From NCBI GenBank assembly GCA_025611195.1, contig GCA_025611195.1_4718.2: a DNA stretch of 64,000 bases; one strand, 5' to 3'. Numbering within the stretch: the stretch's first letter is position 1; each line of letters begins with the position of its first letter. The DNA is from a phage. Position numbers and translations under genes: made by a program. Positions 7,949 to 63,889 of the stretch are shown piece after piece. Below the pieces are notes generated by a model that worked only from the letters and a program-made list of their open reading frames with translations, ran no database searches and was not told the DNA's origin.

Positions 7949-7966
7949 AAGCACTCCAAAGTTCAT

Positions 7967-12429: not shown

Positions 12430-12488
12430 GCTGACCTCATAGATGATCGTTGATAGGAAAGAGACCTAATTCATACCATGGGAACCTC

Positions 12489-12543
12489 AAAAAAAAAAAA
12501 CAAAAATAGGAAAACGGTGCTCATCCTTTTAGGGATGAGCACC
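12489..12543 (-). terminator. rho-independent terminator (minus strand)
   Basis: Perfect 11-bp stem GGTGCTCATCC / GGATGAGCACC with 6-nt loop, followed on the minus strand by a long U-tract (plus-strand A-run at 12489..12514). Sits downstream of 12565..13143. Confidence 0.8.
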
Positions 12544-12564
12544 GCGTACCGTTATATCGAATGA

Positions 12565-13143
12565 TTAGTAAGGAATCAGATCGTTAAGCTTTTCTTCTTC
12601 GATGACAAAGAAGTTGTTCTGGTCGTCTAAATCTGTTAACAGGACTTGTCCGACAGTAAAGCACGTGCCACCCTTCTTAGGCATCCATACCGGCTCATTC
12701 GTTACCTTATCGGGATACCATTTGAAACGATTGGTATCTAAGAAGAACGCTGCTTTGTTCGCTTTATCCGTTGAATGATAACTAACCAATGCAGGCCATT
12801 CAATCCAGGTATTTGTGCACGGCACATGTAAAGGATACCATGCACGCCAGCGTTTGCCTGGCTTGTTAGGATCAACCCAATACTCGGCAGTCAATACAGC
12901 ATCTTTATAATGTTTCTGTATTAACATTTCGAGCACAAGCTCATTACCCTTTGGTGAATCTAAAGTCACTTCAGCCATATAAAGGGATTTAGGTAATCCA
13001 GACTGTTTTGCGGGTGGTATTACGACACCGGTAACCAACGGTCTGCTCGGCTTACGCTTCTGTTCTTTCCGATGTGTGTAAAGGAATAGCCCGATAGCTG
13101 CGGCAACAAGTATAATAAACAACACTACCTTAATCCAATTCAT
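12565..13143 (-). CDS. membrane-anchored protein
   Basis: N-terminal hydrophobic helix (NWIKVVLFIILVAAAIGLFLY) followed by basic residues. ATGA overlap with the upstream gene. Confidence 0.6.
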   Translation of the reverse strand: MNWIKVVLFIILVAAAIGLFLYTHRKEQKRKPSRPLVTGVVIPPAKQSGLPKSLYMAEVTLDSPKGNELVLEMLIQKHYKDAVLTAEYWVDPNKPGKRWRAWYPLHVPCTNTWIEWPALVSYHSTDKANKAAFFLDTNRFKWYPDKVTNEPVWMPKKGGTCFTVGQVLLTDLDDQNNFFVIEEEKLNDLIPY

Positions 13144-13889: not shown

Positions 13890-14064
13890 TTCCTATTCCT
13901 CAAACAAATGATTGTCTTTTACGCGACACGATTACAAGTACACAGGTTACTGAATTTCTGTAAGAGTTAATTTTCGTAAACTAAAAGAAAATGTATCCGT
14001 GTTTCCTGGTTCTTCCCCTCCACAGCCTCAGGAAGAGAAGAACCGTTTGCTAAGTTGTTATATA

Positions 14065-15158: not shown

Positions 15159-15461
15159 TTAACCTCTACCGTCGAGCCACAAGTTGTATTTCTCACGAGC
15201 GTCGGGATCACGATAGATGCGACGATACCTTAATTCCGGTAATAATCCGGTTCGCACTAACTCATCCGTTAACTTTCTACGACGTTCTACGCCGTTATGG
15301 ATACGACGTAACTCACGAAAGTTAAGCGGTGTTTGTTTCATTAGAACCCCCATTACGATCGGGCGATGATCAATTTCATACAGCGATAATACACCACGTA
15401 TTTCATCTAATACCCGCTCGCGATCGATTAGTATTCGATCATGATATTTTAATTGTTCCAT
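15159..15461 (-). CDS. hypothetical protein
   Basis: 100-aa ORF directly downstream of the holin-like gene. Confidence 0.5.
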   Translation of the reverse strand: MEQLKYHDRILIDRERVLDEIRGVLSLYEIDHRPIVMGVLMKQTPLNFRELRRIHNGVERRRKLTDELVRTGLLPELRYRRIYRDPDAREKYNLWLDGRG

Positions 15462-15487
15462 AACAGTTGCTCTCGTTTCAGGGGGAG

Positions 15488-15691
15488 TTAAGTATTGTGT
15501 TTATTCCTACCTACATTCCTCAACAGTGTAACGATAACGAATACCGCTACCATCAAGAAGACGAACCATAACCCCACGTTAATTCGGACTGCTGGTTCAT
15601 CTACCATGAAGAACATCATCCCACAAAAACCAATTACCATCCATGCTAAAACCATCCCCGTTAATCCCCGTAGTAGCATATGTCCCATCAT
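15488..15691 (-). CDS. small two-TM membrane protein (holin-like)
   Basis: Start moved to ATG 15691 (AAGGAG upstream). 67 aa with two hydrophobic helices and a charged C-terminus (RNVGRNKHNT). Lies next to the SleB-type hydrolase. Confidence 0.5.
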   Translation of the reverse strand: MMGHMLLRGLTGMVLAWMVIGFCGMMFFMVDEPAVRINVGLWFVFLMVAVFVIVTLLRNVGRNKHNT

Positions 15692-48233: not shown

Positions 48234-48292
48234 CGTTCGCTGCAAAATCGTATGACGTATATGCGTTGTACTTATTAAATAGGACTGAATAC

Positions 48293-49744
48293 ATGAAACT
48301 CAAACAAAGCTGGAAAGACGAACTTCTTGCGTTAGTAAATAGCAAAAACAGTTTACAGCTGACATTAGACGACGTAAAATTTGAACTAACTGAACCGGTA
48401 AGCGAAGTGCCCGGAACGGTTACTGTCACGATCAAACCGAACGATGATAGCCGTTACTTTAACGAGCAGTCTCTGACCTACGTTCGTCGAGACATCGCTA
48501 AAAACTTCACCGGGATCCCGTTACGGGTTATCGTTAAAAATGATACCGCCGTAAAGGATATCATCAACACGATCGCTGAACGTTACGGATTGGTATTTGA
48601 CACAACCGTCGACTTCCTCGAATCCGAGCTGAATAAACAAATTACGTTCGCAGACACCGGTATTAAAGACATCACGGTTCCGGTTGCAAACACGTCTTAT
48701 GTTTGGGCTGGTAATCTTCAGTTCAACATTGCTAACGATACGTTAAGCTTGATTACGATCATCAAGAAAACCGATCTTACGAATCTGGTTTATCTGGATG
48801 GTGTTGAAGCTGATACAACGGGATCGTTACTATTAGCAACGACCTCGGTTATCGACGAAAACGGAAATACCGAAACAACTGAAGGTGTCCTTGACGCCGC
48901 GCACTTCCAGAATGTCCTGAACGTCATGGTTCGTTATGGTGATATTACCAACGAACAAATGCAACAAGCAATGCAGACAATTAACCAAAGCGAAGACGTT
49001 CGTAGAGTAGAGGTGAGATCATACGGTGACGCCGAATTACTGGTAACCACCAAGAAAGATTGGGCTATCGGTAGCCTTAAGGGTGCTATGGCTGTTGGAC
49101 GCGCTTCACCTAAACCGATCCAATACGTTCTTAAAACAAAAGGCGGCAGCATTATATTATCATTAAATGGTTGGACAAATGTTTCCATCGATTGGGGTGA
49201 TGGGAATAAGACGACGGAGGACTCAGTCGATAATGAATATCGGCACAATTATACGGACACTACAGAACGTACGATCGTCGCTACGGGTACCCCTACCAAC
49301 GTTGAAGATACAGAGGTACAGCAAAGCTTCACCGGTGGTAACATTACAGAAATCGTTGACTGGAACAACGGATTACCTAAGGCCCCATCATTACTTGCGG
49401 CGAACAGTTTAACTAAGGTTCCTAATTATATCCCGGCATACTGGACATCGTTAGAAGGTATGTTTACGAGATGTAGCGTTATTAACGACGTGAACATCAC
49501 CAAATGGAACACCCGCAACATTACTTCAATGAAGGACCTCTTCTACGGTTGCGCTGCGTTCAACCAACCGATCGGTTCGTGGGATGTTTCGTCTGTTAAG
49601 AATATCGACAATATGTTGTCTGGATGCTTCGCGTTCAATCAGGATCTGAGTGGTTGGACATTCCCGGCAGGCACTTCACACATTAACTACGACGCCATGA
49701 CCGCCGTGTGGAGTACTGAACACAAACCACACTTCACCGAGTAA
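48293..49744 (+). CDS. fibre-family paralog on the plus strand: shared N-terminal module plus DUF285/BspA-type repeats
   Basis: MKLKQSWKDELLALVNSKN...YVRRDIAKNFTGIPLRVIV aligns with the 6194..7948 product. C-terminus has the same TSMKDLFYGCAAFNQPIGSWDVSSV units. Start moved to ATG 48293 (AGGA upstream). Confidence 0.7.
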   Translation: MKLKQSWKDELLALVNSKNSLQLTLDDVKFELTEPVSEVPGTVTVTIKPNDDSRYFNEQSLTYVRRDIAKNFTGIPLRVIVKNDTAVKDIINTIAERYGLVFDTTVDFLESELNKQITFADTGIKDITVPVANTSYVWAGNLQFNIANDTLSLITIIKKTDLTNLVYLDGVEADTTGSLLLATTSVIDENGNTETTEGVLDAAHFQNVLNVMVRYGDITNEQMQQAMQTINQSEDVRRVEVRSYGDAELLVTTKKDWAIGSLKGAMAVGRASPKPIQYVLKTKGGSIILSLNGWTNVSIDWGDGNKTTEDSVDNEYRHNYTDTTERTIVATGTPTNVEDTEVQQSFTGGNITEIVDWNNGLPKAPSLLAANSLTKVPNYIPAYWTSLEGMFTRCSVINDVNITKWNTRNITSMKDLFYGCAAFNQPIGSWDVSSVKNIDNMLSGCFAFNQDLSGWTFPAGTSHINYDAMTAVWSTEHKPHFTE

Positions 49745-51110: not shown

Positions 51111-52685
51111 TTACAATTCAAAATCTTCATCGATAACGCGCTGGGTAAGCACTTTGTCGCTGAAGAACTCCACCTTGCGCTGATGGTATTTACGATGCGC
51201 TTCGATAGAAGTACATACCAGATACCAGAAGGTTGGCGTCATTCCTTCAAACTTCCCTTTCAGCTGACGCAGTCGCCCCAACACCTGAATGTTACCGGTT
51301 CGTGACCCCATCGCTAACGTCATGAACGCCATCACCAAGTCAGGAAGGTCGATACCCGTACCTGCCGATTTCACCGTCGTAACGCTAATATCGTTATCCA
51401 ACAAGACCATGAAATCTTCTTCAGCCGTATAAGGACCGATCTCTAACTCAGGAATACGTTCACTAAGGTAATGCGACAACGACTTACACATATCGACGGT
51501 TGCACAATACACCAGCATCTTCATACCTTCCTGATACTGGTTCATGAAACCTTTGATGATAACCGTATAGATGAAGTTAAAATACGCGAGTTTGAGTTGC
51601 TTGTTCTTCATGATAGACTGTTCGAATATCGTGTGAGAATAAGAACCCCCAAACCCTTTATATCTGACTTTATCTGTACTGCGTAGTCGATACGTCACGG
51701 CATTTACCGCAATGTATTTCTTGTATTCGCCTTTCGCATAACGGGCTTCTTTCGGATACATCAAATACAACATCCGCTCGATGAACGGATCATCGGACAC
51801 CGCCGTTGCTGACAGATAGATGATTTCCGGAATACTAGCGTAACACTTGACCTTAAACAAGAAATGCAATGCTTCATGGCACTCGTCATGAATCAGAAGG
51901 CCTATGCCGGTCTTTTCCCAAAACTCAGCGGGATGGAAGGCATATGGCGCAACGCAGTTATTCTTCTCGTAGTCCGCAATATAACGTTGGAACATGTTCA
52001 AGGAGAACAATGCGATTTTGAAGTCGAGTTCGCCTTGTTCAACCAAGGTTTGAAACTCCAACATACTGTAACGAGGAATGTCAGGATGCGGTGGATCCTC
52101 CTTAGCGTTCCCGCGTATCTCGATAACATCCCCTGGTTCCATCCCGAAGAAGTTCAGTAGTGAGCTTCGCCAACCTGGCATGTATCTCGGCGACAGAATG
52201 ATACCCGTCCGCACACCGCGTCGGAAGGTAATCTCCTGCGACATGGCCGTTTTTCCCGACCCCGTTTGAGCGGTGTTTAGGCTCATTCTGAAGGGGGTAT
52301 CCTTACCCCCGTCCATGTACTCCAACCATTCTTGCTGATCTTCACGCCATGGGAACTTCCATTTCTTTACGAACTCCACTTCTTTACCTGGTGCCGGATC
52401 GTGGTAAACGATTTCCAACCACTCTTTTCGTATCCCTCGGGAAAAGATAAAATCCAAAAACGATTTCAACTGTTCGCGGAGTAAGTATACCTCACTATAA
52501 TCGCTTCTTGCCGCGGCATACGTGTTTATGGTATCGGTAACCATTCTCCGTGTACGAGGGTCGCGCCGTTTCCTCAGATGCAAACAACGGTCTCGAAGGT
52601 AATGGCCGATAAGATGGGCAAATCGAAGTCCGTATCCGCTCAGCCTCATGCCGTGCGAGAAGACATCGATACGAGCTAACTTCAT
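51111..52685 (-). CDS. SF2 DExH-box helicase
   Basis: Motif I QTGSGKT, motif II LLIHDECH, motif III YLSATAV, motif VI-like QVLGRLRQ. ATGA overlap with the upstream gene. Confidence 0.75.
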   Translation of the reverse strand: MKLARIDVFSHGMRLSGYGLRFAHLIGHYLRDRCLHLRKRRDPRTRRMVTDTINTYAAARSDYSEVYLLREQLKSFLDFIFSRGIRKEWLEIVYHDPAPGKEVEFVKKWKFPWREDQQEWLEYMDGGKDTPFRMSLNTAQTGSGKTAMSQEITFRRGVRTGIILSPRYMPGWRSSLLNFFGMEPGDVIEIRGNAKEDPPHPDIPRYSMLEFQTLVEQGELDFKIALFSLNMFQRYIADYEKNNCVAPYAFHPAEFWEKTGIGLLIHDECHEALHFLFKVKCYASIPEIIYLSATAVSDDPFIERMLYLMYPKEARYAKGEYKKYIAVNAVTYRLRSTDKVRYKGFGGSYSHTIFEQSIMKNKQLKLAYFNFIYTVIIKGFMNQYQEGMKMLVYCATVDMCKSLSHYLSERIPELEIGPYTAEEDFMVLLDNDISVTTVKSAGTGIDLPDLVMAFMTLAMGSRTGNIQVLGRLRQLKGKFEGMTPTFWYLVCTSIEAHRKYHQRKVEFFSDKVLTQRVIDEDFEL

Positions 52686-54688
52686 AACGTGAATACATCC
52701 TCCGGTTTAGGTTCTTTGCGCGGTAAAAGCATGTAGTCGATCGGATGATCCGGCTTCATGGTTGGGATATAACTGTTCGGGTTTTGGAACGCATCCAGTT
52801 GCTCTTGGTGAGCGAACTTCATACTCAAGGAGCGCATGTTCATGTTCTTCTTGAAGGTGCTGAAGTATCGTGTTGTTCCCTGTTTCGGCATGCGATAATC
52901 TTTCGTGTGTGGCGAACGAATCATGCTGGCGTAGAGAATAACATCGAGATGCGAAAGGTTCATTCGCAGACGCTGTGCGCACAAGCGATGCCAATAGTAC
53001 AGCACGTTTGCAACTTCTTCCGGTGTTGCTTCGTCTTCCGAGAGGAACCCGGCACTGAAAGAACCTTTCCCGAATTTGAACTCACGTTCGATTTCTTTTG
53101 CGTATTCCATCATGTTTTTGTGGATTAACGGCATCTGGAATAACGTACGTGAATTGTCCCAATGTTTCAAGTCGAAAATCACAATCCCGTCAGACGTCAC
53201 TTCCCAGCTATGGCGTTTAAGATAACGGATAAACGCTTTACTCGGTACAACAGGACGTCCGCAGAAATCGAAATTGACTTTGAGCTTACGATAGCTTTCA
53301 TCTTTCCTGTCGTAAATCTCCATATCGCAAAGCGTCATGTTAAACAGACGCTGTGGTATCAGCGAACTGATTTCTTCCGCTTCGGCTACATCGTACAACA
53401 TGTTCGCAAGACCTAACTTCATCTTAATCAGCACGTGTTTACCTTTCAGCTCACGTGCGAGTTTGATGTCGTTCATGTTCTGGCTGTAACGAAGGATATG
53501 TTGATATTCCGGTGGGATTGGTGCTGTAGAGACCGTTGACGAACCGTCGTGGTGTTTGGTAGAAAGAATGTTCTGCGTTACCTGTTGCGAGCAGGTACGC
53601 GCTGCGCCATCGCCGACATTATCGGTTAATGCGAAGTTATGACTTAATTCACCATAACACGTTGTGCATACCCCAGCAGGATCGGGATGATGACAATAGT
53701 TAACGGAGCGCATACGCACTGTGGTGCCGATCAATTCTTTCATATGTGGTTGTATCGCTACCAACGAACCGTCATCACGAATAATGAATCGGCCGTGGAA
53801 GCCACGCAGGTCGGTCTCATCACGGATTGGCATCGGGATGGTCTCTCTACTACCACAATCACCAGGATGTAGTCGTTGCACAACCGCTGTCGCTATCTGA
53901 AGTTCACGACCGAAATATTCAGACTTTTTAATCTGCTCTTTGTTGAACAGCAACGATTTCGCCGCAGAACGACTTTCTTTCAAGCTGTCGGGAAGAGAGA
54001 TCAAACCTGACGCGTACGACCGCATTACTGGATCACGGAATATCTCGGAGTTAATATCGGTCAAGAATCCACGCATCCCAATACACTGCAGCACCTGCCC
54101 AATCGAAACGTGTTCGGTTCTTACCGCACGTGCAATAGGGTTTGCATGTAATGTTTTATCGGTGCTCAGTACCTTTGTCAGTTTCTTGTATGCGCTTTCG
54201 ATACCTTCGCGGGTGGGTTCCGCTTCAGCGATGATTTTCTTAACTTCGGGGTGTACGGTAATCTGATAAAAATCATCCGCACAAATAGTTGTTACGTATT
54301 CCTCCAACGCATACGTAAAGAAGTTATACACGTTGTTAAACATATCGAACAGTGCTTTCCAGAGAACCTCACGATTCTCTTGTGGGTAAGCATACATGCA
54401 TTGACGATACGCTGCGCTTTGCAACGCTACCGATGAACCCGCTGTAAACTTACGTTTATCAACCAGGTTCTCTTTTGTCAATGGTGTCTCAGGATACATG
54501 CGATGTACAGACCAGTGCATGTAACTAAAGAAAATGCGTCGCGCACGTAATTCATGAACGCCATCGTCCATCTCGATATATACACGGTCATTAGGCTGTG
54601 CCCACTCGAATACCTCATCAACCGGCCAGTGCATAAGCTCGCGTGCCCTCACACGACGTTTCGTGGTGGTCGTCTGTGTTGTAGTCAT
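52682..54688 (-). CDS. RNA polymerase beta'-like subunit, C-terminal fragment (multisubunit phage RNAP)
   Basis: Colinear similarity to bacterial beta' region F through the trigger loop: CIGMRGFLTDINSEIF (beta' AGMRGLMAKPDGSIIE), bridge-helix-like SRSAAKSLL, VRMRSVNYCHHPDPAGVCTTCYGEL (beta' [22 protein letters not shown]). No NADFDGD motif, so the N-terminal part is encoded elsewhere. Confidence 0.7.
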   Translation of the reverse strand: MTTTQTTTTKRRVRARELMHWPVDEVFEWAQPNDRVYIEMDDGVHELRARRIFFSYMHWSVHRMYPETPLTKENLVDKRKFTAGSSVALQSAAYRQCMYAYPQENREVLWKALFDMFNNVYNFFTYALEEYVTTICADDFYQITVHPEVKKIIAEAEPTREGIESAYKKLTKVLSTDKTLHANPIARAVRTEHVSIGQVLQCIGMRGFLTDINSEIFRDPVMRSYASGLISLPDSLKESRSAAKSLLFNKEQIKKSEYFGRELQIATAVVQRLHPGDCGSRETIPMPIRDETDLRGFHGRFIIRDDGSLVAIQPHMKELIGTTVRMRSVNYCHHPDPAGVCTTCYGELSHNFALTDNVGDGAARTCSQQVTQNILSTKHHDGSSTVSTAPIPPEYQHILRYSQNMNDIKLARELKGKHVLIKMKLGLANMLYDVAEAEEISSLIPQRLFNMTLCDMEIYDRKDESYRKLKVNFDFCGRPVVPSKAFIRYLKRHSWEVTSDGIVIFDLKHWDNSRTLFQMPLIHKNMMEYAKEIEREFKFGKGSFSAGFLSEDEATPEEVANVLYYWHRLCAQRLRMNLSHLDVILYASMIRSPHTKDYRMPKQGTTRYFSTFKKNMNMRSLSMKFAHQEQLDAFQNPNSYIPTMKPDHPIDYMLLPRKEPKPEDVFTL

Positions 54689-54809
54689 TATTGCTTTCCG
54701 ATTTAAATGGTTTTATCATACGGTTTACCAAATCCGTTGGACTTTACTATCGTTGTGATAGCATCGGGAATCCCTTCCCTTAGGTTATGTAGGTGTTAAT
54801 ATATCTCCA

Positions 54810-54831
54810 CTGCTGTCGTAAAGGTCAGCAG
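54810..54831 (-). promoter_or_regulatory. stem-loop CTGCTG/CAGCAG just after the stop of 54834..55319
   Basis: 6-bp stem with 10-nt loop. On the minus strand it is followed by GGAGATATATTAACACC, a TATATTA-containing variant. Confidence 0.35.
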
Positions 54832-54833
54832 CA

Positions 54834-55319
54834 TTATCCAGCTTCCTGTTGTATAGCGTATGGATCCATAGCGTCTGACATATTCGCAAAAACGGTGAGA
54901 ATAAACCCCTTTATCTGTCTCACCTCGGTTACACGAAGCCCTTTATCATTACGGTATACGTTTTCTTCACCAACCAACTTCGGCCTGATAGCATAAACCC
55001 CATCAACAAACGGGAATGTCGGATACGGATAAATACCGATACGAATGATGTTTGGATGATCGCCTAGAAGGTCACGCCCAAATGTATCTACTCTACCGTA
55101 AACCGTTCCATCCACACCCTCCACTTCAATGAGATCATTTCGAATATCCTGAAATAGCTGCTCTAATGTGTCGGCGGGGTACGTATATGCGACACCTAAC
55201 GCTGGGTCCTCAATGGTTTTGACACTGAATCCGTTAAGCCAAACAATCTGTTCATCCGCCCATGTTTCTTCATATACCGTTAATCCATCGCCGTATATGT
55301 TGGCGCGTGCTATCTCCAT
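54834..55319 (-). CDS. hypothetical protein
   Basis: 161-aa ORF with AAGAGGAAA before ATG. Confidence 0.5.
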   Translation of the reverse strand: MEIARANIYGDGLTVYEETWADEQIVWLNGFSVKTIEDPALGVAYTYPADTLEQLFQDIRNDLIEVEGVDGTVYGRVDTFGRDLLGDHPNIIRIGIYPYPTFPFVDGVYAIRPKLVGEENVYRNDKGLRVTEVRQIKGFILTVFANMSDAMDPYAIQQEAG

Positions 55320-55433
55320 AATCTCATTTCCTCTTATACGTTCGGATAGATGACATGTTGGATATACGTTGCCTTTGCATATATTGCTTTATTTCCGTCA
55401 GAAATAACGGAAAATAAAAACAACGACATAGTT

Positions 55434-55463
55434 CCCTCCCACCTCCACATGGGAGAGGGAGGG
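55434..55463 (-). promoter_or_regulatory. stem-loop CCCTCCC/GGGAGGG (16-nt loop) after the stop of 55477..55842
   Basis: 7-bp stem; a second hairpin TTTCCGT...ACGGAAA lies at 55391..55412. Confidence 0.5.
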
Positions 55464-55476
55464 CTATTCGTGTTTA

Positions 55477-55842
55477 TTACTCTATGCTGTCTTCTTCAAC
55501 ACAATCCTCTTCGGAACCGTCGAACGTTTTCTGCACCGCAGTGGTATCCCAGTTGGCAGCGTAATCAGCCATCGCTTCGCGCAACGCTTCTTCACCAGCA
55601 TCGCCAGCCAGATCAAGCACAACCAAACCTTGCGCGACGTTTTGAGCGACAGTATCAATAACGGTTGCATCTTCTTCAAAACTACGTACCGGTTCAATGG
55701 TGCCTACATCAACAGCATAGTTCGTGGTCGCTGTAAGCACGGCGACTTGTAGTGCATCGCTATTATCATCATCATGCAGTGCTGCTTCAATACCGATTGG
55801 ACGGGCCAGTTCTTGCAGTGTTAATTTGCGAATTAAGTTCAT
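55477..55842 (-). CDS. small acidic protein (acidic trio A)
   Basis: Shares LTLQELAR with the 55866..56216 product and VLDL.G with the 56335..56748 product. Confidence 0.5.
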   Translation of the reverse strand: MNLIRKLTLQELARPIGIEAALHDDDNSDALQVAVLTATTNYAVDVGTIEPVRSFEEDATVIDTVAQNVAQGLVVLDLAGDAGEEALREAMADYAANWDTTAVQKTFDGSEEDCVEEDSIE

Positions 55843-55865
55843 TATGTTTTTTCCTCAGGTGAATG

Positions 55866-56216
55866 TTAGCAATCGTTTAAAACTTTTTCGATACGATGGT
55901 TGACGAGTTCATTGAACGACTCTTCAACTTGTTCGATAATTTCATCAACGTCGATATCTAATTGTTGGGGTTGGATAACATGCTCTTTCATGGTTTCTAA
56001 CCAGTATTCGGCTTTAACCATAACGTTAGCTACTTGTTCGACCTGGCTGCGTATGTCGACGATCTGGCAGTCAGGATTTTTAATATCGATGATGTGTCCG
56101 TGCTGATTGATAAAGCCTAGTTTATTCGACGCCTTTACCGCATCGCGGGCAAGTTCTTGCAAGATTAAATTATTTACGTAGTTCACTGCTACGGAACGAT
56201 TTTCTTTATCACTCAT
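55866..56216 (-). CDS. small acidic protein (acidic trio B)
   Basis: Start moved to ATG 56216 (AAGAGGA upstream); the ORF-track N-terminal extension runs through the stem-loop. Confidence 0.5.
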   Translation of the reverse strand: MSDKENRSVAVNYVNNLILQELARDAVKASNKLGFINQHGHIIDIKNPDCQIVDIRSQVEQVANVMVKAEYWLETMKEHVIQPQQLDIDVDEIIEQVEESFNELVNHRIEKVLNDC

Positions 56217-56284
56217 ACCAGGGATCCTCTTTAAGTCTTCACATTCTAGTGTTAAGCAGTTAAAATAAACCGTCCCTTTAATCA

Positions 56285-56323
56285 GCATAAACATCCTCCT
56301 CCTACCATGCGGGCAGGAGGAGG
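56285..56323 (-). promoter_or_regulatory. stem-loop CCTCCTCCT/AGGAGGAGG followed on the minus strand by TTTATGCTG
   Basis: 9-bp stem 56295..56323 after the stop of 56335..56748; TTTATGC at 56285..56291 (minus), about 70 nt upstream of ATG 56216. Confidence 0.55.
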
Positions 56324-56334
56324 CGTAATATGCA

Positions 56335-56748
56335 TCAGAAAGGTGTGCGATTCTTATATTCGAATAATGTCTGAAGGACACATCGTGTTAACGAGTTTTG
56401 TAATTCGATACGTCCTTGTTCTCCGAACAGATCCAACACCATCATCCCTTTTGCTGTTTTCTCTGCCACTTCTTCACAAATCTGTAAATTGTACATGTCG
56501 TCATTGCCGAGTTCCTTTCGACCGATCGAACTGACACGCATCAACTCACCTTTACTATCGCGAACATCGGAGAATGCATCATAGACCGCATCGATGTTCG
56601 CAGAACGCGTCAAACCCTCCGCTTCGCGCCACTCTCGATATGTACCATCAAGCGTTTGTTCCTCGCCCGAGGTTGTTGATTCGCTGTTGGTGGTTGGGCG
56701 AATTAAATGGGGTGTTATCATCGCGATCACGCTGTCGTAATGGTCCAT
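56335..56748 (-). CDS. small acidic protein (acidic trio C)
   Basis: 137-aa ORF immediately downstream of the beta-like gene. Confidence 0.5.
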   Translation of the reverse strand: MDHYDSVIAMITPHLIRPTTNSESTTSGEEQTLDGTYREWREAEGLTRSANIDAVYDAFSDVRDSKGELMRVSSIGRKELGNDDMYNLQICEEVAEKTAKGMMVLDLFGEQGRIELQNSLTRCVLQTLFEYKNRTPF

Positions 56749-56759
56749 CGTTTACCTCG

Positions 56760-58928
56760 TTAGCTTTCGCAGTCATCTGCGTCGATGATTTGTCCGCCAG
56801 CAACGTTCAGTTGATGATACAGAATCCTCAACGCACGGTTGCCACCAATGGGATACTTCTCGAAGTTGGTCGCAATAGGAATCGCTGACGGCTTATCGGT
56901 CGCATAGATGCTTTCAGTGATGCTATCCACCTGTTTTGGATTGTTCGCATAGTCCATAAAGACGCTCGCAAACCATCCGCCAGCGAAGGCGGTAACTTCG
57001 CGATGTTCAGATTCGCCACAGTAACGAGTCGGTTGCTCTTTACCGGGAGAACTGTATTTATCGCTATTACTGAGTTTCGACGGTAATCCATGCGCTTGCA
57101 ATTTAGGGATACCCACAGCCGACCAATCGTTCGCCGTCTTCTCCAACATCATGATGTACGTGTCACCGATCGCAATATCGTTCTTGGTTGTCCGCCACTG
57201 TCCAGAACGCCCGCGGTACCGTACAGGACCTTTCTTCAACGGGAACTCACGAATCAGATTCTCCATACGTTCTGAACCTGCTGCGATACTGTCCGTCGGG
57301 ATATAAACTTCCGTACCGTGGCGCTGTACGTACCGTAAATGATCCCATTTATCCTCATTCGTGATACAGTATTTTTCAACAACCTGTTCCACGAACTCAG
57401 GACTGACGATATAGTAATAGCGCATCAGTGTGTTCCAGGCGGTCTCCAGATCGCCTGCATCCATCACTGGTTTCAGTTCACGCATGATCTGATCACCAAC
57501 GCCGTTGATGTATGGCGCATTAACACGACTTAAACTCATCCTTTTAATTACCGTGCTATCGTCAAACATAAAGTCCGCAACGTTACCCCATTGGTCAACC
57601 GGCATTTCATCGTCTTCCATGATGTCGGTTACGACGAATTTATCGCCTGCCATACCGGTGAATTTAAACCCGATGCCTGGAACAACGTCATACGTGTATG
57701 TGATGGTCACACGCCAATCATCAAGATTCTCTTTACGGTAATCGCGGGTCGGTAACACATGGCGTAGCTGTCCGTTAGGATTGCGGATATCAATACCGTG
57801 TTCAGCGTCAGCCAGGTTCAACCACCACATCACCGTTTGATGATGACGTATCGGCGTACCAACGCGTTCACGTTCGTACTTACGAACAGCATCCTGAATT
57901 CGGGTGTAAAGCAAACCGATTGCGTTCTCGTATTTCAGGAATTGACGATACGGAGGACGCATCTTCTCTTCCATCATAATCGCGCGCTCGCGGGCTTGAC
58001 GTCCAGAACGACGATGTCGATCGCTGACAACATCGATATCCGTTACACGCGCATTCGGTTCAGCGTAAGTGAGATCATCGTAAACATAATCCACACGCTG
58101 AAGATTACACGTCATCATGTCAACAACGCTGAGGATAGGATCTATTTCGCGTGTTGCTGCAAGTAACCCATCCTTACGAATACGCTCACCGTTCTCGGGT
58201 ATCGCTTGATATACCTCATCATCGCCGTAGAGATTAATTGGATATCGTGATTTACCTGATGTGATCGTTCGCTTCTCAATGCCGGTACTGGTGAAATGCT
58301 TCAATACACCACGACGGGCAACGCCACCATCTTCAATACACTGGTAGAAGCTACCGAAACACACCTTGCAATCGCGACCGTAACCCCACTCACGTGTTTC
58401 TTGATTGATCGCTGGGCTTTCCATCAAACGAGAATATCGCGGTACGATCTGGCCTCGACGAAGGGAATGGAACAAGTTGGTTGGTCGAAAACGGAAACCG
58501 TACTGCTGATGCATGATGTGATGCTCAGGCACTTCAAGCAAGCGTAGCTCGTGACGGTTACCATCCTCTTGGTTTTCGTACAGCACGTAATGCATCGTGT
58601 TTGTTTTGATGCTGTTTGCTGTATGTCCTGGTTGAAACCGTGGAATGATATCTATGATGCGAGATTCAACTGGAAACTCTACTGACCAAGTGTTCTGTCC
58701 GTACTGGTATTCAATCCCCGTCGTTAGTCGGGACGGCTTCGCATCTTTGATAACCAACGCTTGGCTAAGATGTCCACCAAACATCGCAGCGCGCTGTGCT
58801 GAGTTATAATGCAATAGCCCGTTAAGTCCAGTCCCTACGCCAGTATACTCCTGTTTAATGGGAATGATTTTACCTTCAGCGATTGCCTGCTTCACAGATT
58901 CATAAAGAGGTTTTTCTTTATAATGCAT
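56760..58928 (-). CDS. RNA polymerase beta-like subunit, C-terminal fragment (multisubunit phage RNAP)
   Basis: Colinear matches to the beta catalytic region: GMAGDKFVV (beta GDKMAGRHGNKG), EDDEMPVDQWGNVAD...KRMSLSR (beta EDMPYDENGTPVD...SRMNIGQ), IGDTYIMMLEKTANDW (beta GYMYMLKLNHLVDDKMHA), GESEHREVTAFAGG (beta GEMEVWALEAYGAA). Start moved to ATG 58928 (AGGAAG upstream). Confidence 0.65.
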   Translation of the reverse strand: MHYKEKPLYESVKQAIAEGKIIPIKQEYTGVGTGLNGLLHYNSAQRAAMFGGHLSQALVIKDAKPSRLTTGIEYQYGQNTWSVEFPVESRIIDIIPRFQPGHTANSIKTNTMHYVLYENQEDGNRHELRLLEVPEHHIMHQQYGFRFRPTNLFHSLRRGQIVPRYSRLMESPAINQETREWGYGRDCKVCFGSFYQCIEDGGVARRGVLKHFTSTGIEKRTITSGKSRYPINLYGDDEVYQAIPENGERIRKDGLLAATREIDPILSVVDMMTCNLQRVDYVYDDLTYAEPNARVTDIDVVSDRHRRSGRQARERAIMMEEKMRPPYRQFLKYENAIGLLYTRIQDAVRKYERERVGTPIRHHQTVMWWLNLADAEHGIDIRNPNGQLRHVLPTRDYRKENLDDWRVTITYTYDVVPGIGFKFTGMAGDKFVVTDIMEDDEMPVDQWGNVADFMFDDSTVIKRMSLSRVNAPYINGVGDQIMRELKPVMDAGDLETAWNTLMRYYYIVSPEFVEQVVEKYCITNEDKWDHLRYVQRHGTEVYIPTDSIAAGSERMENLIREFPLKKGPVRYRGRSGQWRTTKNDIAIGDTYIMMLEKTANDWSAVGIPKLQAHGLPSKLSNSDKYSSPGKEQPTRYCGESEHREVTAFAGGWFASVFMDYANNPKQVDSITESIYATDKPSAIPIATNFEKYPIGGNRALRILYHQLNVAGGQIIDADDCES

Positions 58929-58959
58929 AGGACTTCCTATTATCGAATTGAGGTACGTC

Positions 58960-59313
58960 ATGTCTAACACGCCCCTGAACGACTTTCTTAAGACAAACCC
59001 CGATGACCTCATCCACGATCTTGATTTCAGGAACGTTGTTGAGATGCATCTGGAATATTTCAAAAATGCCGGACTGGTCTCTACGATAGACATACCACCC
59101 GAACGCGCCTACGAATTCGATGGTAACTTTTATGGATTGTGTCGTGTTCTGCTCGGCGAGGGCAGTGAATCAATGCACTGGATCACCATGAGACTCAATG
59201 GTTATCGCGACCCTACGGAATACACGGCCGATGTTCTAACCATGAAGATTGTCGATACAAGCGCAATCAACACATTAAAACAGCAGTACCGCACAATCCA
59301 CTACAGCGCTTAA
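58960..59313 (+). CDS. hypothetical protein (lone plus-strand gene)
   Basis: MSNTPLNDFLKTNPDDLIHDL...; GAGGT 6 nt before ATG 58960. Divergent from the beta-like gene with a 31-bp spacer. Confidence 0.5.
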   Translation: MSNTPLNDFLKTNPDDLIHDLDFRNVVEMHLEYFKNAGLVSTIDIPPERAYEFDGNFYGLCRVLLGEGSESMHWITMRLNGYRDPTEYTADVLTMKIVDTSAINTLKQQYRTIHYSA

Positions 59314-59318
59314 GATAA

Positions 59319-59358
59319 CCCTCCCACAGCGTAAAGCGTAGGGAGGGCATTTATGCCG
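59319..59358. terminator. stem-loop CCCTCCC/GGGAGGG at convergent junction, followed on the plus strand by ATTTATGCCG
   Basis: 7-bp stem 59319..59347 with 15-nt loop between the plus gene stop (59313) and the minus gene stop (59379). Confidence 0.5.
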
Positions 59359-59378: not shown

Positions 59379-60659
59379 TCAGAAACGATTTACAGTACGT
59401 CCTGTCCACGCACTCAGGATGTTGTTACGTTCCATCTCAGCCCGACGACGTAAACCGTTTGGCGACTGCGGTGCTGGCGGCATCCCCCACCCAGCAGGCT
59501 GCATACCCATACCAGGCCAAGCGGTATTATTGAACATCGTGCCGTTACGTTCCGCGACACGATTCATCAACGCATCAAACGTGCTATTACCTGCCGGTTG
59601 GTTACCACCACTTTCCCACTGATTAGGTTGAACAGGTGCGGTTTTACCTAACAGGTTATCAATCACGTTACTTGTTGCAGCAGGACGCGGTTGCATACCT
59701 TCATGTGCAGCTGCTGATGGATTTGGCTTAACCGTCGGCTGCGGACGACTGTTCAGCGTTACACCCATGTTGTATTTCGCTGGTGGAATCTGACCACGAT
59801 GTTGGGTAATCGGCTCAAAATCCTCGACCCAGGTAACATCGCAATAACCGTTCTCTTTACCGTCGTACTTATCACCAAACAGTTTGATGAGATTGTTCAG
59901 CGGTTCCATCAGCTTCGCGAAGCTGTGGATAAGACAATCGAAATAGGGAGCATGAGGATCGCTTGACCCAGCATTATACGTTTCACTTACTTCACCGGAG
60001 TGAGGGATAACGTACTCAACCAGGTTTCTCAGCATGTTAAGATCTTTCTTGGAAATCTCAACACCACACCAGTACGTTTTCTTATCTTTCGTGCTGATGT
60101 GTTCCTCTTCCATGAACGGGAAAGTAACTACCGCAACACGGGTCATCTTCTTACCCATGTAGGTTGCGCCGGTACGACGAAGATAAATTTTAGACAGCGT
60201 ATACGGTGTGTCGCGTTTCAACCAAACGGTAACCAGTTTGCCCAGGGTCGTTAATGTTTTATCGCTGGCGTCCGCAAGGATGTTGAAGAACTCTTTTTGC
60301 TTCGGTCCGAAACGTTTTGCTTCTTTAGGGTTGATTGCGGTTTCAACCATCCAAATCAGCATAGAACACAGCGTGGCGTTAAAACGAACAACCATCGCGC
60401 GACGCAGGAACTGAAGTACTTCCGATTCGCCGTTCATCACGTCTTCACTTAACGGATGGAACAACACGCGTTCAGCTAACTGGTTTCCGGTACGAACTTC
60501 GGGAACCGGCATCAGCAACGGCATGCTTTCCACGGTAGCGGCAACTGCAACAACTTTACCATCCCCATCCGTAAAACGATATTCTAATTCGTGGGCATCA
60601 TTCTCAAAATAGTTAACGCTTTGCAGCGCTTTGCGATAAGCTTCAATAAGCTTCGACAT
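59379..60659 (-). CDS. hypothetical protein with Gln/Pro/Gly-rich C-terminal tail
   Basis: 426-aa ORF with AAGGAAA before ATG. Confidence 0.55.
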   Translation of the reverse strand: MSKLIEAYRKALQSVNYFENDAHELEYRFTDGDGKVVAVAATVESMPLLMPVPEVRTGNQLAERVLFHPLSEDVMNGESEVLQFLRRAMVVRFNATLCSMLIWMVETAINPKEAKRFGPKQKEFFNILADASDKTLTTLGKLVTVWLKRDTPYTLSKIYLRRTGATYMGKKMTRVAVVTFPFMEEEHISTKDKKTYWCGVEISKKDLNMLRNLVEYVIPHSGEVSETYNAGSSDPHAPYFDCLIHSFAKLMEPLNNLIKLFGDKYDGKENGYCDVTWVEDFEPITQHRGQIPPAKYNMGVTLNSRPQPTVKPNPSAAAHEGMQPRPAATSNVIDNLLGKTAPVQPNQWESGGNQPAGNSTFDALMNRVAERNGTMFNNTAWPGMGMQPAGWGMPPAPQSPNGLRRRAEMERNNILSAWTGRTVNRF

Positions 60660-60714: not shown

Positions 60715-62301
60715 TTAGAAGTTGCCTTTGGTAGTTACCGCATCCACCAGGTTAAACAAATCAACACTCAGCTTGTAAACCTCCTGCTGGCTACGGTTGA
60801 GCAGTGGGCTGTACGCGGACGGGTTGATGTTCGGCATGGTGTACGGAATCGGTGAAGAGCCGTCAACGCTGATCTTGAACTGGCTGTCCAGGAACAGGTT
60901 GATTGCGCCACTCACCATAACCGCGTTCGGGTTGTTACCCAACATGGAGGGCAGGATATTGGTAATCATGTCAGAGCGCATCTGTTCAGCAGCGCGGTTA
61001 CAATCATACCCTTTAATGAACGGTACAGCGTCAGTAACCGCAACCGCCCATTGCCCAGGCATGATACCTAGTTCTGGATGGCCGTGGTTATCAGCAATGA
61101 AACGGAACGATTCCAACATGCGATACGTCATCGCAGCAGGCATCATCGCAGCAAGCGACGAACAGTACAATGTTGGGTAATCGATAACGTCCCAGCTCTG
61201 GCTATCGGTCGGCATCCAGCCAAACTCAGTGGTTGCTGATGTACCGCGACGAGCTTCCACATACGGGAATAACGTTAATACGTCACGGATATGTTCGCCG
61301 AACATCCGTTTCATGTCTACCCAACTCATGCTACCGCTGAAGGCGAATCCCTCATCACGCATGATCGCACCGAATACCGGATGTGCAACCAACGGTTCTT
61401 CACGAACAGCTTGAGCTGCTTCTACGTAAATATCCTCATTCTCTGCGCTACCTGGATGAGACCCGCTTTCGTACGTCTGACGAATAGCCCCGACGTTATC
61501 GAAGGCTTTTCTTAGATAGATGGTTGGGATGTTCGTATCAGCACTCGCTGGTTTGATTTTCTCCGTTGCGAAACACATTGCTGCTTCCACACCACGAAAA
61601 ACCGGTTCCGGTTGCGATTGATAGGAAGAGCGATGGACCACATCAGCGTAGGCTGGATCGAACTGCTGCATCACGTTCTGCATGGCTGGGTCCATGAACT
61701 GGTTATCAAAACCACCATTGCCTACCCAACGTGCTGTCGACGCATAAGTCAGCGTATCCTGAACACGAGTACTGAACTGAACATCACGATTAACAGGGTC
61801 GTATGCGCCAGTCAAAAGGTTCGTTGCGTCCATCGGGGTCGCGCGAACGATTTGCTTACCGAACATATCCGTTGTGGTTGTTTCGGTTACCTGGATTACA
61901 TTCGTGAAGAAGAACACCAGTTCGTTCGGTAGATCGATAGAACGCGTTGTAAACGCATCGAGGCTTACCGAATGGTCGGTGTATCCAGAAATGTAATGGA
62001 CGCGCTTGGTTCCTGGTGCAAGGGCCAAGGATTCTTCCACAGCCATCATGAAATGGAAACGACGTGTGCCCCAACCATTCGCAATCTCCGAAACCCCCTC
62101 AGGTTCTGCAGACTGCTGTAACAAACCGGTTGCAAGCTTATTGATTGCTGATGGGGTTGTTGCCGTACCGAACTTCGTCGTGTTAATAAAGTCTTCGATG
62201 CTACGCATGCTATCTGCATGGAATCGTAGTGGACGACGTTGTACGTTGTTGTACGGTGCGGTTTCAACCATCAGTATTTCACGAACATTCATCGGGATCA
62301 T
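60715..62301 (-). CDS. hypothetical protein (528 aa)
   Basis: Long ORF with AAGAGGAAA before ATG; one of two adjacent 528-aa genes. Confidence 0.6.
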   Translation of the reverse strand: MIPMNVREILMVETAPYNNVQRRPLRFHADSMRSIEDFINTTKFGTATTPSAINKLATGLLQQSAEPEGVSEIANGWGTRRFHFMMAVEESLALAPGTKRVHYISGYTDHSVSLDAFTTRSIDLPNELVFFFTNVIQVTETTTTDMFGKQIVRATPMDATNLLTGAYDPVNRDVQFSTRVQDTLTYASTARWVGNGGFDNQFMDPAMQNVMQQFDPAYADVVHRSSYQSQPEPVFRGVEAAMCFATEKIKPASADTNIPTIYLRKAFDNVGAIRQTYESGSHPGSAENEDIYVEAAQAVREEPLVAHPVFGAIMRDEGFAFSGSMSWVDMKRMFGEHIRDVLTLFPYVEARRGTSATTEFGWMPTDSQSWDVIDYPTLYCSSLAAMMPAAMTYRMLESFRFIADNHGHPELGIMPGQWAVAVTDAVPFIKGYDCNRAAEQMRSDMITNILPSMLGNNPNAVMVSGAINLFLDSQFKISVDGSSPIPYTMPNINPSAYSPLLNRSQQEVYKLSVDLFNLVDAVTTKGNF

Positions 62302-62302
62302 T

Positions 62303-63889
62303 TTATTTTTTTCCTCTTAAATTTACTACATGTTCATTTAATCGAACAACTAATTGCACAAGCTGCTGACGGATATCTGCTGGACAAAGCATCAATCCTT
62401 TACGATCAGCTGGGACTTTCTCAAGGATTTCCGGACCTGCTGCGGAAACATCCCAATCCCATTCACAAAACGCATCAGCCACCATGTTAATACCGACAAC
62501 CGGTAAAGTTGTACGTTCATCTTCATACATGGCATGCGGATACAATTTATTGACGGTAATGACCTCCTGTGGTTTTAACTGATGGATAATCTGGTAAACG
62601 TCGTCGCGTTTAACCTGGATACCTACGGTCAGCGCAGCCAGTTGAGGAAAACCCCAATGGTCTAATAAACACGCTGCGATCGCTAACGCTTTTGCCTGAT
62701 GTACGGCTTCAATCGGTGATAGACTTCTCGCTGGAAGATGGCTATCAAGCAACCATTGTGCCAATGCTCGGCATCCACGGTTGATTGGTTTTAACTCAAC
62801 GCTGTCATCATGTTTAGCGTAGGTGTATCCGTCGTAACGTTTTGCGATACGCGCATACATGTCTTCAACTTTACCGTAAGGTGCCGTTTCATCGATGTCG
62901 TGCAGCACCCGTTCCATCTGGGTAAGATACGCGATGTCGAGAATGAGTACGCGCGGTGAACGTTTATCTTTCACCATCAACGCATCGATCACGCCTTGGC
63001 TATCTTCGTCTTGCGCGTTCCCTCGCGGGGTTTTCTCGCGAATCGGTCCGCTGAAACGTCGTTCCGTACAAAGGTTATTCACATAGCTAAAGATCAACGT
63101 TACCAGGTGCGTACAACTTACCAACACCCCATCTTTAACGACAGGCTGTACGGCTTGGTCCAAATCGCGTACTGCGAGACGGCGAACGATGGCTTGTGAA
63201 CGCAACCAACCGGGTACTTTCTCCGTCGACATGTAATCCACTGTCATCGACAGCGTGATCTTTTTATCACCTGTCTGCGCACGGATATAATCTTCCAGTC
63301 GGTCGTAAGCAGCGATATCATGAATGCGTGTTTTATACATTAACGACATAGCTACTTCTTCTTTACGTACCGTCCCGTACGTTTTCCCTGCGTCAATCAG
63401 AAACTCCGCCCAAATCGGCACCATCAGACGGACGTAGATCGCTAACGCCGTTAACTCAACGTAATCATTTCGTAAATAGGTTTTCTCGGGTATATCATCC
63501 TCACCTAATGTTGTTTTCATGTCCGGCGGTAATTTTACCCAACCTGGGGTATTACACAACGCCAGAATCTCTTCATACACAACCGGTTTGTAAATTTCAC
63601 CAACAGCGCGGCTCAACTCCTCCATTTGTTGTTGTGGAGCAATGTAGTTATCCATCGCTTCACGTGCTTTAACGAACCCTTCGAAGATGTCGTCGATTCG
63701 ACGTGGGTTCTTTTGTTCTATCCAGGCGAGATACTTGTTAATCTCCCGCATCTGATTGCTAGCCATATCCCCATCAATCTTGATGTAACCCTGGCCTGAA
63801 AATTCCACGGTACGTCCGTCACGATGTTTGATGAGATAGTGATCCAGCTTTTCTTTGCCTTGCGTCGTAATGACGGGCACTATGTGCAT
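62303..63889 (-). CDS. hypothetical protein (528 aa)
   Basis: Long ORF with AAGAGG before ATG; preceded by the TATATTAC-like element. Confidence 0.6.
   Translation of the reverse strand: MHIVPVITTQGKEKLDHYLIKHRDGRTVEFSGQGYIKIDGDMASNQMREINKYLAWIEQKNPRRIDDIFEGFVKAREAMDNYIAPQQQMEELSRAVGEIYKPVVYEEILALCNTPGWVKLPPDMKTTLGEDDIPEKTYLRNDYVELTALAIYVRLMVPIWAEFLIDAGKTYGTVRKEEVAMSLMYKTRIHDIAAYDRLEDYIRAQTGDKKITLSMTVDYMSTEKVPGWLRSQAIVRRLAVRDLDQAVQPVVKDGVLVSCTHLVTLIFSYVNNLCTERRFSGPIREKTPRGNAQDEDSQGVIDALMVKDKRSPRVLILDIAYLTQMERVLHDIDETAPYGKVEDMYARIAKRYDGYTYAKHDDSVELKPINRGCRALAQWLLDSHLPARSLSPIEAVHQAKALAIAACLLDHWGFPQLAALTVGIQVKRDDVYQIIHQLKPQEVITVNKLYPHAMYEDERTTLPVVGINMVADAFCEWDWDVSAAGPEILEKVPADRKGLMLCPADIRQQLVQLVVRLNEHVVNLRGKK

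Follow-up and report, generated by a model that had tools for sequence, protein, structure and literature searches.

The window, that is, the whole stretch of 64,000 nucleotides (64 kb) of phage DNA analysed here, was colinear with Escherichia phage Goslar at 92-94% nucleotide identity, and Goslar is placed in the Chimalliviridae by taxonomy. Judged from the sequence, the window comes from a member of the genus Goslarvirus, a jumbo phage of the E. coli type within the Chimalliviridae, the nucleus-forming phiKZ-like phages. The phiKZ-like jumbo phage proposed in a first-pass annotation of this DNA agrees with a phiKZ-like genome of about 237 kb whose nearest relative is Goslar. The right part of the window carries two split RNA polymerase (RNAP) subunit genes, four small acidic genes between them and a conserved set of neighbours. 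The assignments to the non-virion RNAP (nvRNAP) are listed here as nearly certain.

51111..52685, minus strand: SF2 helicase, 524 aa; phiKZ gp75, Goslar gp164; BLASTP against gp75 E 2e-54; phrog_16
52682..54688, minus strand: nvRNAP beta'-C subunit, 668 aa; orthologue of Goslar gp165 and phiKZ gp74
54834..55319, minus strand: s1, 161 aa, pI 4.31; Goslar gp166; clade-restricted ORFan
55434..55464, minus strand: hairpin shortly after the s2 stop, with a T-rich tract behind it; dG -26.5 kcal/mol, z -4.15
55477..55842, minus strand: s2, 121 aa, pI 4.05; 97.5% aa identity to Goslar gp168
55866..56216, minus strand: s3, 116 aa, pI 4.68; Goslar gp169, following the Goslar annotation; short start preferred on the pattern of substitutions
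56295..56323, minus strand: terminator-like hairpin shortly after the s4 stop, with a 12 bp stem; dG -30.1 kcal/mol, z -7.4
56335..56748, minus strand: s4, 137 aa, pI 4.68; Goslar gp170; ORFan restricted to the Goslar clade
56760..58928, minus strand: nvRNAP beta-C subunit, 722 aa, uninterrupted; orthologue of Goslar gp171 and phiKZ gp71-73
58960..59313, plus strand: acidic ORF, 117 aa; Goslar gp172, following the Goslar annotation
59379..60659, minus strand: phiKZ gp70 homologue, 426 aa; Goslar gp173; BLASTP against gp70 E 2e-24; phrog_3520 E 2.7e-63
60715..62301, minus strand: PicA/Imp1 homologue, 528 aa; phiKZ gp69, Goslar gp174; BLASTP against gp69 E 9e-17, end to end
62303..63889, minus strand: fifth nvRNAP subunit, 528 aa; homologue of phiKZ gp68 and Goslar gp175

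The two large ORFs had been proposed to encode diverged C-terminal fragments of beta' and beta. Both were found at exactly the coordinates given then, and profile and sequence searches identified their products as beta'-C and beta-C of a phiKZ-type nvRNAP. For beta-C the start at 58928 was the better one: an AGGAAG Shine-Dalgarno sequence lies upstream of it, and it is also the start of Goslar gp171. The first ATG, at 59093, was rejected, because the extension would overlap the divergent plus-strand gene (58960-59313) and both the Shine-Dalgarno sequence and the Goslar start favour 58928.

The beta'-C protein showed full-length homology to phiKZ gp74 (PDB 7OGP_D, E 6.5e-87, aa 11-654) and matched the PHROG family phrog_3015 (E 9e-170), and the beta-C protein matched phiKZ gp71-73 (7OGP_C, E 6.9e-86) and phrog_3295 (E 3.5e-180). 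These PDB and PHROG values are far beyond chance. Weaker matches of beta'-C were obtained to AR9 7s00_D (E 9.3e-14), to a second PHROG RNAP family (phrog_2962, E 9e-10) and to bacterial beta' in the PDB (down to 4e-5); beta-C matched chain C of the AR9 nvRNAP (E 2.2e-17). The beta-C family profile retrieved from the PDB 7ogp_C (2.5e-253), AR9 (5.8e-89) and E. coli beta 658-1241 (2e-32). With phmmer, beta'-C aligned colinearly to E. coli beta' 733-947 and beta-C to E. coli beta 1063-1241.

Scores against the curated bacterial models were far lower. For beta-C they reached 16.3 bits with Pfam RNA_pol_Rpb2_6 (cut-off 23.4) and 15-19 bits with the NCBIfam rpoB models (cut-offs 800-900). The beta'-C protein had no match in Pfam and scored 37 bits (E 8e-10) with NCBIfam rpoC_TIGR, against a cut-off of 963.5. 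Both proteins are thus homologues and not members of the bacterial RpoB/RpoC families, and the assignment rests on the phage-specific family instead of RpoB/RpoC membership. Phage-specific libraries and the PDB were needed for the identification, as Pfam gave nothing above its cut-offs.

The motifs on which the first-pass annotation had relied were all located, and they aligned with the E. coli residues at which they would be expected. In beta'-C these are the region-F motif GMRG (aa 204-207), a bridge-helix-like segment (aa 241-271), the VRxxSV..C....GVC..CYG-type stretch, present as VRMRSVNYCHHPDPAGVCTTCYG (aa 324-346), and the trigger loop (aa 359-382), which ends in STKHH and whose H379 aligned with E. 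coli H936. Four Zn-site cysteines (C278, C332, C341 and C344) also aligned to E. coli beta'. In beta-C, GDK stands at aa 428-430 and the EDMP...D..G...D...RMN-like stretch appears as EDDEMPVDQWGNVADFMFDDSTVIKRMSLSR (aa 438-468), while the segments compared with Y-M-Y-M-L-K-L and GEMEVWALEA read IGDTYIMMLEK (aa 587-597) and GESEHREV (aa 638-645). This protein carries the second double-psi beta-barrel (DPBB) with K422 and K430, which correspond to phiKZ K386 and K394, plus E199-D200; K422, K430 and D200 were invariant across 101 diverse homologues. The AF2 model of beta-C (pLDDT 89.6) superposed on chain C of the phiKZ and AR9 nvRNAPs and on bacterial beta, as expected from the earlier proposal, with Foldseek giving E 7.9e-59 and TM 0.81/0.84 for 8que_C (phiKZ) and E 9e-32 for E. 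coli beta.

Both ORFs were intact in nine related genomes. Compared with the relative L003, 63 of 69 substitutions in the beta'-C gene and 62 of 64 in the beta-C gene fell on third codon positions, with one and no amino acid change, respectively. The proteins were 99.4% (beta'-C) and 99.9% (beta-C) identical to Goslar gp165 and gp171. Over both genes and both relatives (L003 and Goslar) about 90-97% of the substitutions were third-position, with 0-4 amino acid changes.

The product of 62303..63889 matched PHIKZ068 in the PDB (7ogp_B / 9rjs_B, E 2e-28, residues 23-518) and phrog_3209 (E 4e-68). In phiKZ, gp68 is a sigma-like, promoter-binding integral subunit of the nvRNAP (PMC8287921). The beta'-N part had been expected elsewhere in the genome; accordingly, no DFDGD-bearing ORF was found in the 64-kb window, where beta-N was likewise absent, and Goslar has its gp55 homologue at 169651-170910 (E 4e-57), about 8 kb past the point matching the right end of the window.

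The phiKZ block order gp68-gp69-gp70-gp71/73-gp74-gp75 is reproduced in the window, each gene being confirmed pairwise. The PicA/Imp1 homologue within it is a phage-nucleus protein import factor and not an RNAP subunit; its Goslar counterpart gp174 has been named PicA (bioRxiv 10.1101/2024.03.21.585822). The start of the helicase gene overlaps the beta'-C stop by 4 nt. In L003 the helicase gene contains a 685-bp in-frame insertion, an intein; a group I intron was rejected for this insertion, given its reading frame and the lack of an Rfam match. Rfam and tRNA scans of the entire 64-kb window gave no matches.

Taken together, it is hard to doubt that the two genes encode the C-terminal halves of beta- and beta'-like nvRNAP subunits and that 62303-63889 encodes the fifth, sigma-like subunit. 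The support computed here consists of homology, conservation of functional residues, the predicted beta-C fold, strong purifying selection and gene order. The activity of the enzyme, the assembly of its subunits, its timing and its place in the nucleus are inferred from the phiKZ and Goslar literature, the biochemistry and structure of the phiKZ enzyme being published (PMC4666361, PMC8287921). By this analogy, beta-C would contribute one of the two active-centre double-psi beta-barrels (K422, K430, E199-D200) together with parts of the flap and clamp, and beta'-C would bring the trigger loop and the bridge helix as well as region F and the Zn site with its four cysteines. Genes elsewhere in the genome would provide beta-N and, as beta'-N, the catalytic DFDGD barrel, and the five polypeptides would form a complex that lacks alpha, omega and any dissociable sigma. 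Inside the phage nucleus, the enzyme would transcribe the phage genes that are not expressed by the injected virion RNAP. A sigma-70 promoter scan found 19 sites against 20.9 expected in shuffled sequence, and this lack of excess is as expected for a phage that relies on its own polymerases.

Chimalliviruses encode two paralogous split RNAPs, and both ORFs could in principle belong to the virion-packaged one (vRNAP, phiKZ gp80/gp149 type), which transcribes early genes; the weaker match of beta'-C to phrog_2962 points the same way. We consider this very improbable and essentially refuted, as the best full-length matches were the nvRNAP chains gp74 and gp71-73, synteny ties the genes to the nvRNAP-specific gp68, and the orthologues in phage RAY are annotated as nvRNAP. 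Goslar gp165 and gp171 are also labelled nvRNAP, at about 0.25 and 0 copies per virion (Table S4, bioRxiv 10.64898/2026.04.21.720040). Hardly any weight can be given either to an AR9/PBS2-type nvRNAP of a non-nucleus-forming jumbo phage: the significant sequence, profile and structural matches to AR9 chains C and D, with TM values of 0.73-0.81, are outweighed by much stronger phiKZ matches, the DNA is 94% identical to that of Goslar, a member of the Chimalliviridae, and the gene block also holds PicA/Imp1 and the gp68 homologue.

Both ORFs fall short of full-length bacterial beta and beta', and the scores stay under the curated bacterial cut-offs, as could be said of decaying, non-functional RNAP remnants or of a chance resemblance. 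However, split subunits are the normal state for this enzyme family, and the catalytic and structural residues are invariant. The predominance of third-position substitutions in ORFs that are intact in all nine related genomes refutes decay, and we regard the whole explanation as vanishingly improbable. The phiKZ-type nvRNAP is the reading that we retain.

Between the two subunit genes, the four small genes described in the first-pass annotation are present in the window, whereas Goslar annotates five there; the extra Goslar ORF encodes 31 aa and is possibly no real gene. Three of the four had been called acidic paralogs. All four proteins are indeed acidic (pI 4.05-4.68), but paralogy of three did not hold, as only s2 and s4 share a motif, of 31-36 aa (BLASTP E 2e-5 over 31 aa; hhalign E 4.6e-4, probability 33%). 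Between s3 and s2 only LxLQELAR is common, s1 resembles no other small protein, and the other pairs had no significant similarity by BLASTP or by hhalign on three-genome and database alignments. In tblastn against Goslar, each small protein found solely its own orthologue.

The least constrained small gene is s1, with 8 and 13 amino acid differences from L003 and Goslar, respectively; tblastn matched it to Goslar only, and it had no family match in Pfam, PHROG or NCBIfam. The Goslar orthologue of s2, gp168, is associated with virions in high copy number (about 220; text and Table S4, bioRxiv 10.64898/2026.04.21.720040), and gp169, the orthologue of s3, was detected in virions at about 90 copies (Table S4 of the same preprint). 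A longer s3 with a start at 56381 was rejected, the extension having substitutions at all codon positions and indels. The central pair s3-s2 is bracketed by the two strong hairpins.

The s4 protein was only 54% identical to Goslar gp170, while the flanking genes were at 99%, and 41 of the 74 codons for identical amino acids differed. Its database homologues fell into two groups, with 88-94% or 55% identity, and s4 exists as two deeply diverged alleles. An identical s4 protein is encoded on contigs of about 235-241 kb, e.g. GCA_011494745.1 AAQECE010000007.1 and ERZ27275950 k141_81227. AlphaFold run on the s4 sequence alone gave no usable model (pLDDT 44). As a whole, the four small acidic genes are a Goslar-clade-specific insertion of about 2.1 kb, with no such insertion in phiKZ or RAY, and most likely their products are not RNAP components.

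A zone of about 400 nt around the beta-C start, at 58680-59100, was invariant even at synonymous sites. The divergent plus-strand ORF begins across a spacer of only 31 nt; its substitutions relative to L003 and Goslar are almost solely third-position, and its product had no match in Pfam or NCBIfam. A structured RNA in the invariant zone was unsupported (folding z -1.5 and -0.8), and the conserved upstream regions compared had no k-mer of at least 7 nt in common. A joint reading of these features, which we regard as unlikely, would make s4 a pair of ancient alleles exchanged by recombination in an arms-race gene (e.g. an anti-defence or host-takeover factor), s2 and s3 injected nucleic-acid mimics or early effectors, and the invariant zone a dense regulatory element, acting in both directions, for the expression of the nvRNAP.

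Of the five nvRNAP subunit genes, three are now placed within the window of this Goslarvirus relative, as is the gene of the import factor PicA/Imp1. The identification is correct but ordinary, as the nvRNAP family is already described in the literature, including the way its subunits are split and its structure, and the Goslar orthologues already carry annotations; for the same reason nothing new on RNA polymerases follows from it. The added value is modest and lies in the acidic-gene insertion, the recombining and hypervariable s4, the unusually invariant, possibly regulatory zone at the beta-C start and the intein in the helicase of a relative.

Compared with bacterial RpoB and RpoC, the core elements are colinear (beta' 733-947 with region F, bridge helix, Zn site and trigger loop; beta 658-1241), but the phage subunits are each split in two, identity is about 14% and there are no alpha/omega partners. 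The nvRNAP of the Bacillus phage AR9 (PDB 7S00, 7S01) has split beta and beta' subunits and the same fold (TM 0.70-0.81), although AR9 is much more distant from the window phage and lies outside the Chimalliviridae. AR9 also employs a different promoter-specificity subunit (PMC9209446).

The phiKZ nvRNAP (gp55, gp68, gp71-73, gp74, gp123; PDB 7OGP, 7OGR, 8QUE, 9RJS) has the same split-subunit architecture. The beta-C, beta'-C and fifth subunits are colinear full-length homologues encoded in a shared gene block. Amino acid identity is only about 27-30%; the lysines of the DPBB, the cysteines of the Zn site, the bridge helix and the His of the trigger loop are all retained. In phiKZ the gp72 ORF splits the beta-C gene, which is continuous in the window phage. 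The beta-C and beta'-C genes are direct neighbours in both phiKZ and RAY but are separated here by about 2.1 kb with four or five small acidic ORFs. Goslar differs from the window by about 6% nucleotide divergence, by the s4 allele in comparison to gp170 and by accessory genes elsewhere in the window. Its gp165 and gp171 (NC_048170.1; RefSeq 'RNA polymerase beta subunit') have the same lengths, 668 and 722 aa. The genes follow each other as they do in the window, and the small ORFs between the subunit genes, the hairpins and divergently oriented gp172 are part of this shared arrangement.

ORF calling placed both RNA polymerase (RNAP) subunit genes in a series of minus-strand genes. The first-pass annotation had reported four small genes between the subunits, and four ORFs (s1-s4) were found there, together with a 31-aa ORF annotated in Goslar:

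52682-54688, minus strand, beta'-C, 668 aa
54834-55319, minus strand, s1 (Goslar gp166), 161 aa, pI 4.31
55477-55842, minus strand, s2 (Goslar gp168), 121 aa, pI 4.05
55866-56216, minus strand, s3 (Goslar gp169), 116 aa, pI 4.68
56335-56748, minus strand, s4 (Goslar gp170), 137 aa, pI 4.68
56760-58928, minus strand, beta-C, 722 aa

The beta'-C ORF was exactly as first called. For beta-C the original start at 58928 was preferred, with an AGGAAG Shine-Dalgarno upstream and the same start as the annotated Goslar orthologue. A longer start at 59093, to which the frame is open, was rejected because it would overlap a divergent plus-strand gene (58960-59313).

All the RNAP motifs noticed earlier were found in the two proteins. 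In phmmer alignments beta'-C was colinear with E. coli RpoC 733-947, including GMRG, the bridge helix, the Zn site (C278/C332/C341/C344, corresponding to C814/C888/C895/C898) and the trigger loop, where H379 aligned to H936. Beta-C was colinear with RpoB 1063-1241, with K422 and K430 matching K1065 and K1073 and with the EDMP...RMN and YMYMLKL stretches inside the alignment.

Profile searches, as the first-pass annotation had proposed, matched both proteins to RNAP families. Full-length matches to phage RNAP families were obtained in PHROGs (E 9e-170 for beta'-C and 3.5e-180 for beta-C). In the PDB, beta'-C was closest to phiKZ gp74 (7OGP_D, E 6.5e-87), followed by AR9 non-virion RNAP (nvRNAP) chain D (9.3e-14) and bacterial beta' (down to 4e-5), and beta-C matched phiKZ gp71-73 (7OGP_C, 6.9e-86) and AR9 chain C (2.2e-17). 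Exhaustive HMMER searching gave 1335 beta-C-related clusters, of which almost all are around 700 aa, the closest outside the Goslar clade being only 35-37% identical. A profile built from 101 of them matched E. coli beta 658-1241 (E 2e-32), and second-largest subunits of archaea, eukaryotes and poxviruses were hit as well. K422, K430 and D200 were invariant throughout this alignment, the two lysines being the counterparts of the phiKZ double-psi beta-barrel lysines K386 and K394 (PMC8287921). Structure prediction and superposition, also proposed earlier, were run for beta-C: the AlphaFold2 model on the same alignment was confident (pLDDT 89.6, pTM 0.87), with phiKZ nvRNAP chain C as its top structural match (E 7.9e-59, TM 0.81/0.84), then AR9 chain C and bacterial beta. 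Curated bacterial RNAP models (Pfam, NCBIfam) matched significantly but far under their family cut-offs, which by sequence indicates divergent homologues of RpoB and RpoC rather than members of those families.

Both proteins can securely be assigned to the non-virion enzyme and not to the virion RNAP, based on their best matches to nvRNAP chains, the surrounding genes and the scarcity of their Goslar orthologues in virions. Upstream of beta-C, 62303-63889 encodes a homologue (E 2e-28) of phiKZ gp68, the nvRNAP-specific sigma-like subunit (PMC8287921), and 60715-62301 a gp69 homologue (PicA/Imp1, Goslar gp174); the whole phiKZ block gp68-gp69-gp70-gp71/73-gp74-gp75 is reproduced in order. The Goslar orthologues gp165 (beta'-C) and gp171 (beta-C) are labelled 'nvRNAP', each virion containing about 0.25 and 0 copies, respectively (bioRxiv 10.64898/2026.04.21.720040, Table S4). 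As to the missing halves, no window ORF carried DFDGD; there was a single D.DGD match in a 75-aa ORF, and all window ORFs of at least 400 aa have another assignment. In Goslar a homologue of phiKZ gp55 (beta'-N) was found at 169651-170910 (E 4e-57), about 8 kb past the position matching the right end of the window.

In pairwise comparisons with two relatives, L003 (IMG/VR record IMGVR_UViG_3300011560_000001) and Goslar, beta-C had 64 and 71 substitutions; of these, 62 and 70 fell on the third base of a codon, and the protein differed at 0 and 1 residues. For beta'-C, 69 and 70 substitutions altered 1 and 4 amino acids. Such counts indicate functional, strongly constrained genes.

The beta-C and beta'-C genes lie side by side in phiKZ and RAY, whereas here s1-s4 separate them; the block is thus specific to the Goslar clade. 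No Pfam, PHROG or NCBIfam assignment was obtained for s1-s4, and no homologues were found in phage genomes beyond the clade. Three of the genes had been described as acidic paralogs. All four are indeed acidic, but support for paralogy was limited to a 31-36 aa motif that s2 and s4 have in common, the other pairs having no significant mutual similarity. Strong hairpins lie 3' of s4 (dG -30, z -7.4) and 3' of s2 (dG -26.5, z -4.2), thus bracketing the s3-s2 pair (55434-56323). In Goslar virions the s3 and s2 orthologues, gp169 and gp168, reach about 92 and 219 copies, and gp170 and gp166 are at trace level (bioRxiv 10.64898/2026.04.21.720040, Table S4). The bracketed segment therefore resembles a virion-protein cassette inside the nvRNAP gene block. 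Taken with the clade restriction, this makes s1-s4 look like a separate cassette amid early/middle polymerase genes, probably late-expressed, rather than a polymerase accessory set.

Across nine Goslar-like genomes, variation at the locus peaked in s4. Its product is 54% identical to gp170, and 41 of 74 identical-aa codons differ, as compared to 99.9% identity and about 10% of codons for the adjacent beta-C; this points to an anciently diverged allele that arrived by recombination rather than by evolution at this site. Two s4 allele groups occur in public data (88-94% and 55% identity).

In the same nine genomes 58680-59100 (~400 nt) was near-invariant, synonymous sites included, each 60 nt holding 0-2 variable columns, compared with 4-10 elsewhere. 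Within it are the beginning of beta-C (~80 codons), the 31-nt spacer to the divergent plus-strand gene and the 5' end of that gene; folding gave no significant RNA structure (z -1.5 and -0.8), and overlapping promoters would be our guess. All positions were also nearly invariant in the stretch separating the s1 start from the s2 hairpin (55260-55440), which contains the 31-aa ORF (Goslar gp167), a pattern more in keeping with a regulatory element than with a protein-coding gene. Between the convergent gp70 homologue and the same plus-strand gene (117 aa), a hairpin at 59319-59347 (CCCTCCC...GGGAGGG stem, similar to that after s2) is probably a bidirectional terminator.

Elsewhere, L003 has a gp75-type helicase with a 229-aa in-frame insertion (12436-13122; window equivalent ~52252) that splits the Walker A motif (GSGK|AIPLNT...VTHN|TAMS) and has DnaB and gp41-1 mini-inteins of solved structure as its matches (6BS8_A, E 3.9e-11). 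It is an Ala-start intein, missing from the window and from Goslar. The tail-fibre gene (1622-5500, 1292 aa), with 65-87% nucleotide identity to Goslar gp090 and many internal repeat matches, is far more diverged from Goslar than the rest of the genome, which suggests a different receptor specificity. A 590-aa ORF at 6194-7966 (DUF7941 and DUF285/LRR-like domains, the same type as the gp161 homologue at 48266-49744), which Goslar lacks at that position, is probably an extra host-recognition protein. Conversely, the window lacks Goslar gp096, gp120 and ~340 nt near gp099/gp100 (at ~13972-14003, ~15346-15510 and 24955); these differences are ordinary accessory-gene flux.

Megablast of the region and the remaining 50 kb found only Escherichia phage vB_EcoM_Goslar (92-94% identity), colinear except for a few gene gains and losses; the phage collection searched holds two records, of one phage, from this clade. 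L003 is a third relative (96.6% identity), and public assemblies contain many 234-241 kb contigs with this locus. Contigs of the Goslar type, 234-250 kb long, are present in NCBI assemblies under the labels Shigella flexneri, Shigella sonnei, Salmonella enterica and E. coli O157, as well as in ENA and Logan metagenomes, so raw public data sample the clade far more richly than that collection.

The observation of the first-pass annotation is confirmed and its interpretation as split RNAP subunits supported. The by-products, such as s4, the s3-s2 cassette, the invariant zones and the intein, are minor, and are the sole parts absent from the literature covered. The enzyme itself is already known, characterised and annotated, and was correctly recognised here: identity to the Goslar orthologues is 99.4% for beta'-C (gp165) and 99.9% for beta-C (gp171), and RefSeq calls both of these orthologues 'RNA polymerase beta subunit'. 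Its genome is a new close relative of this published phage, whose genus, Goslarvirus, is placed in Chimalliviridae, the family of phiKZ-like jumbo phages that form a nucleus.
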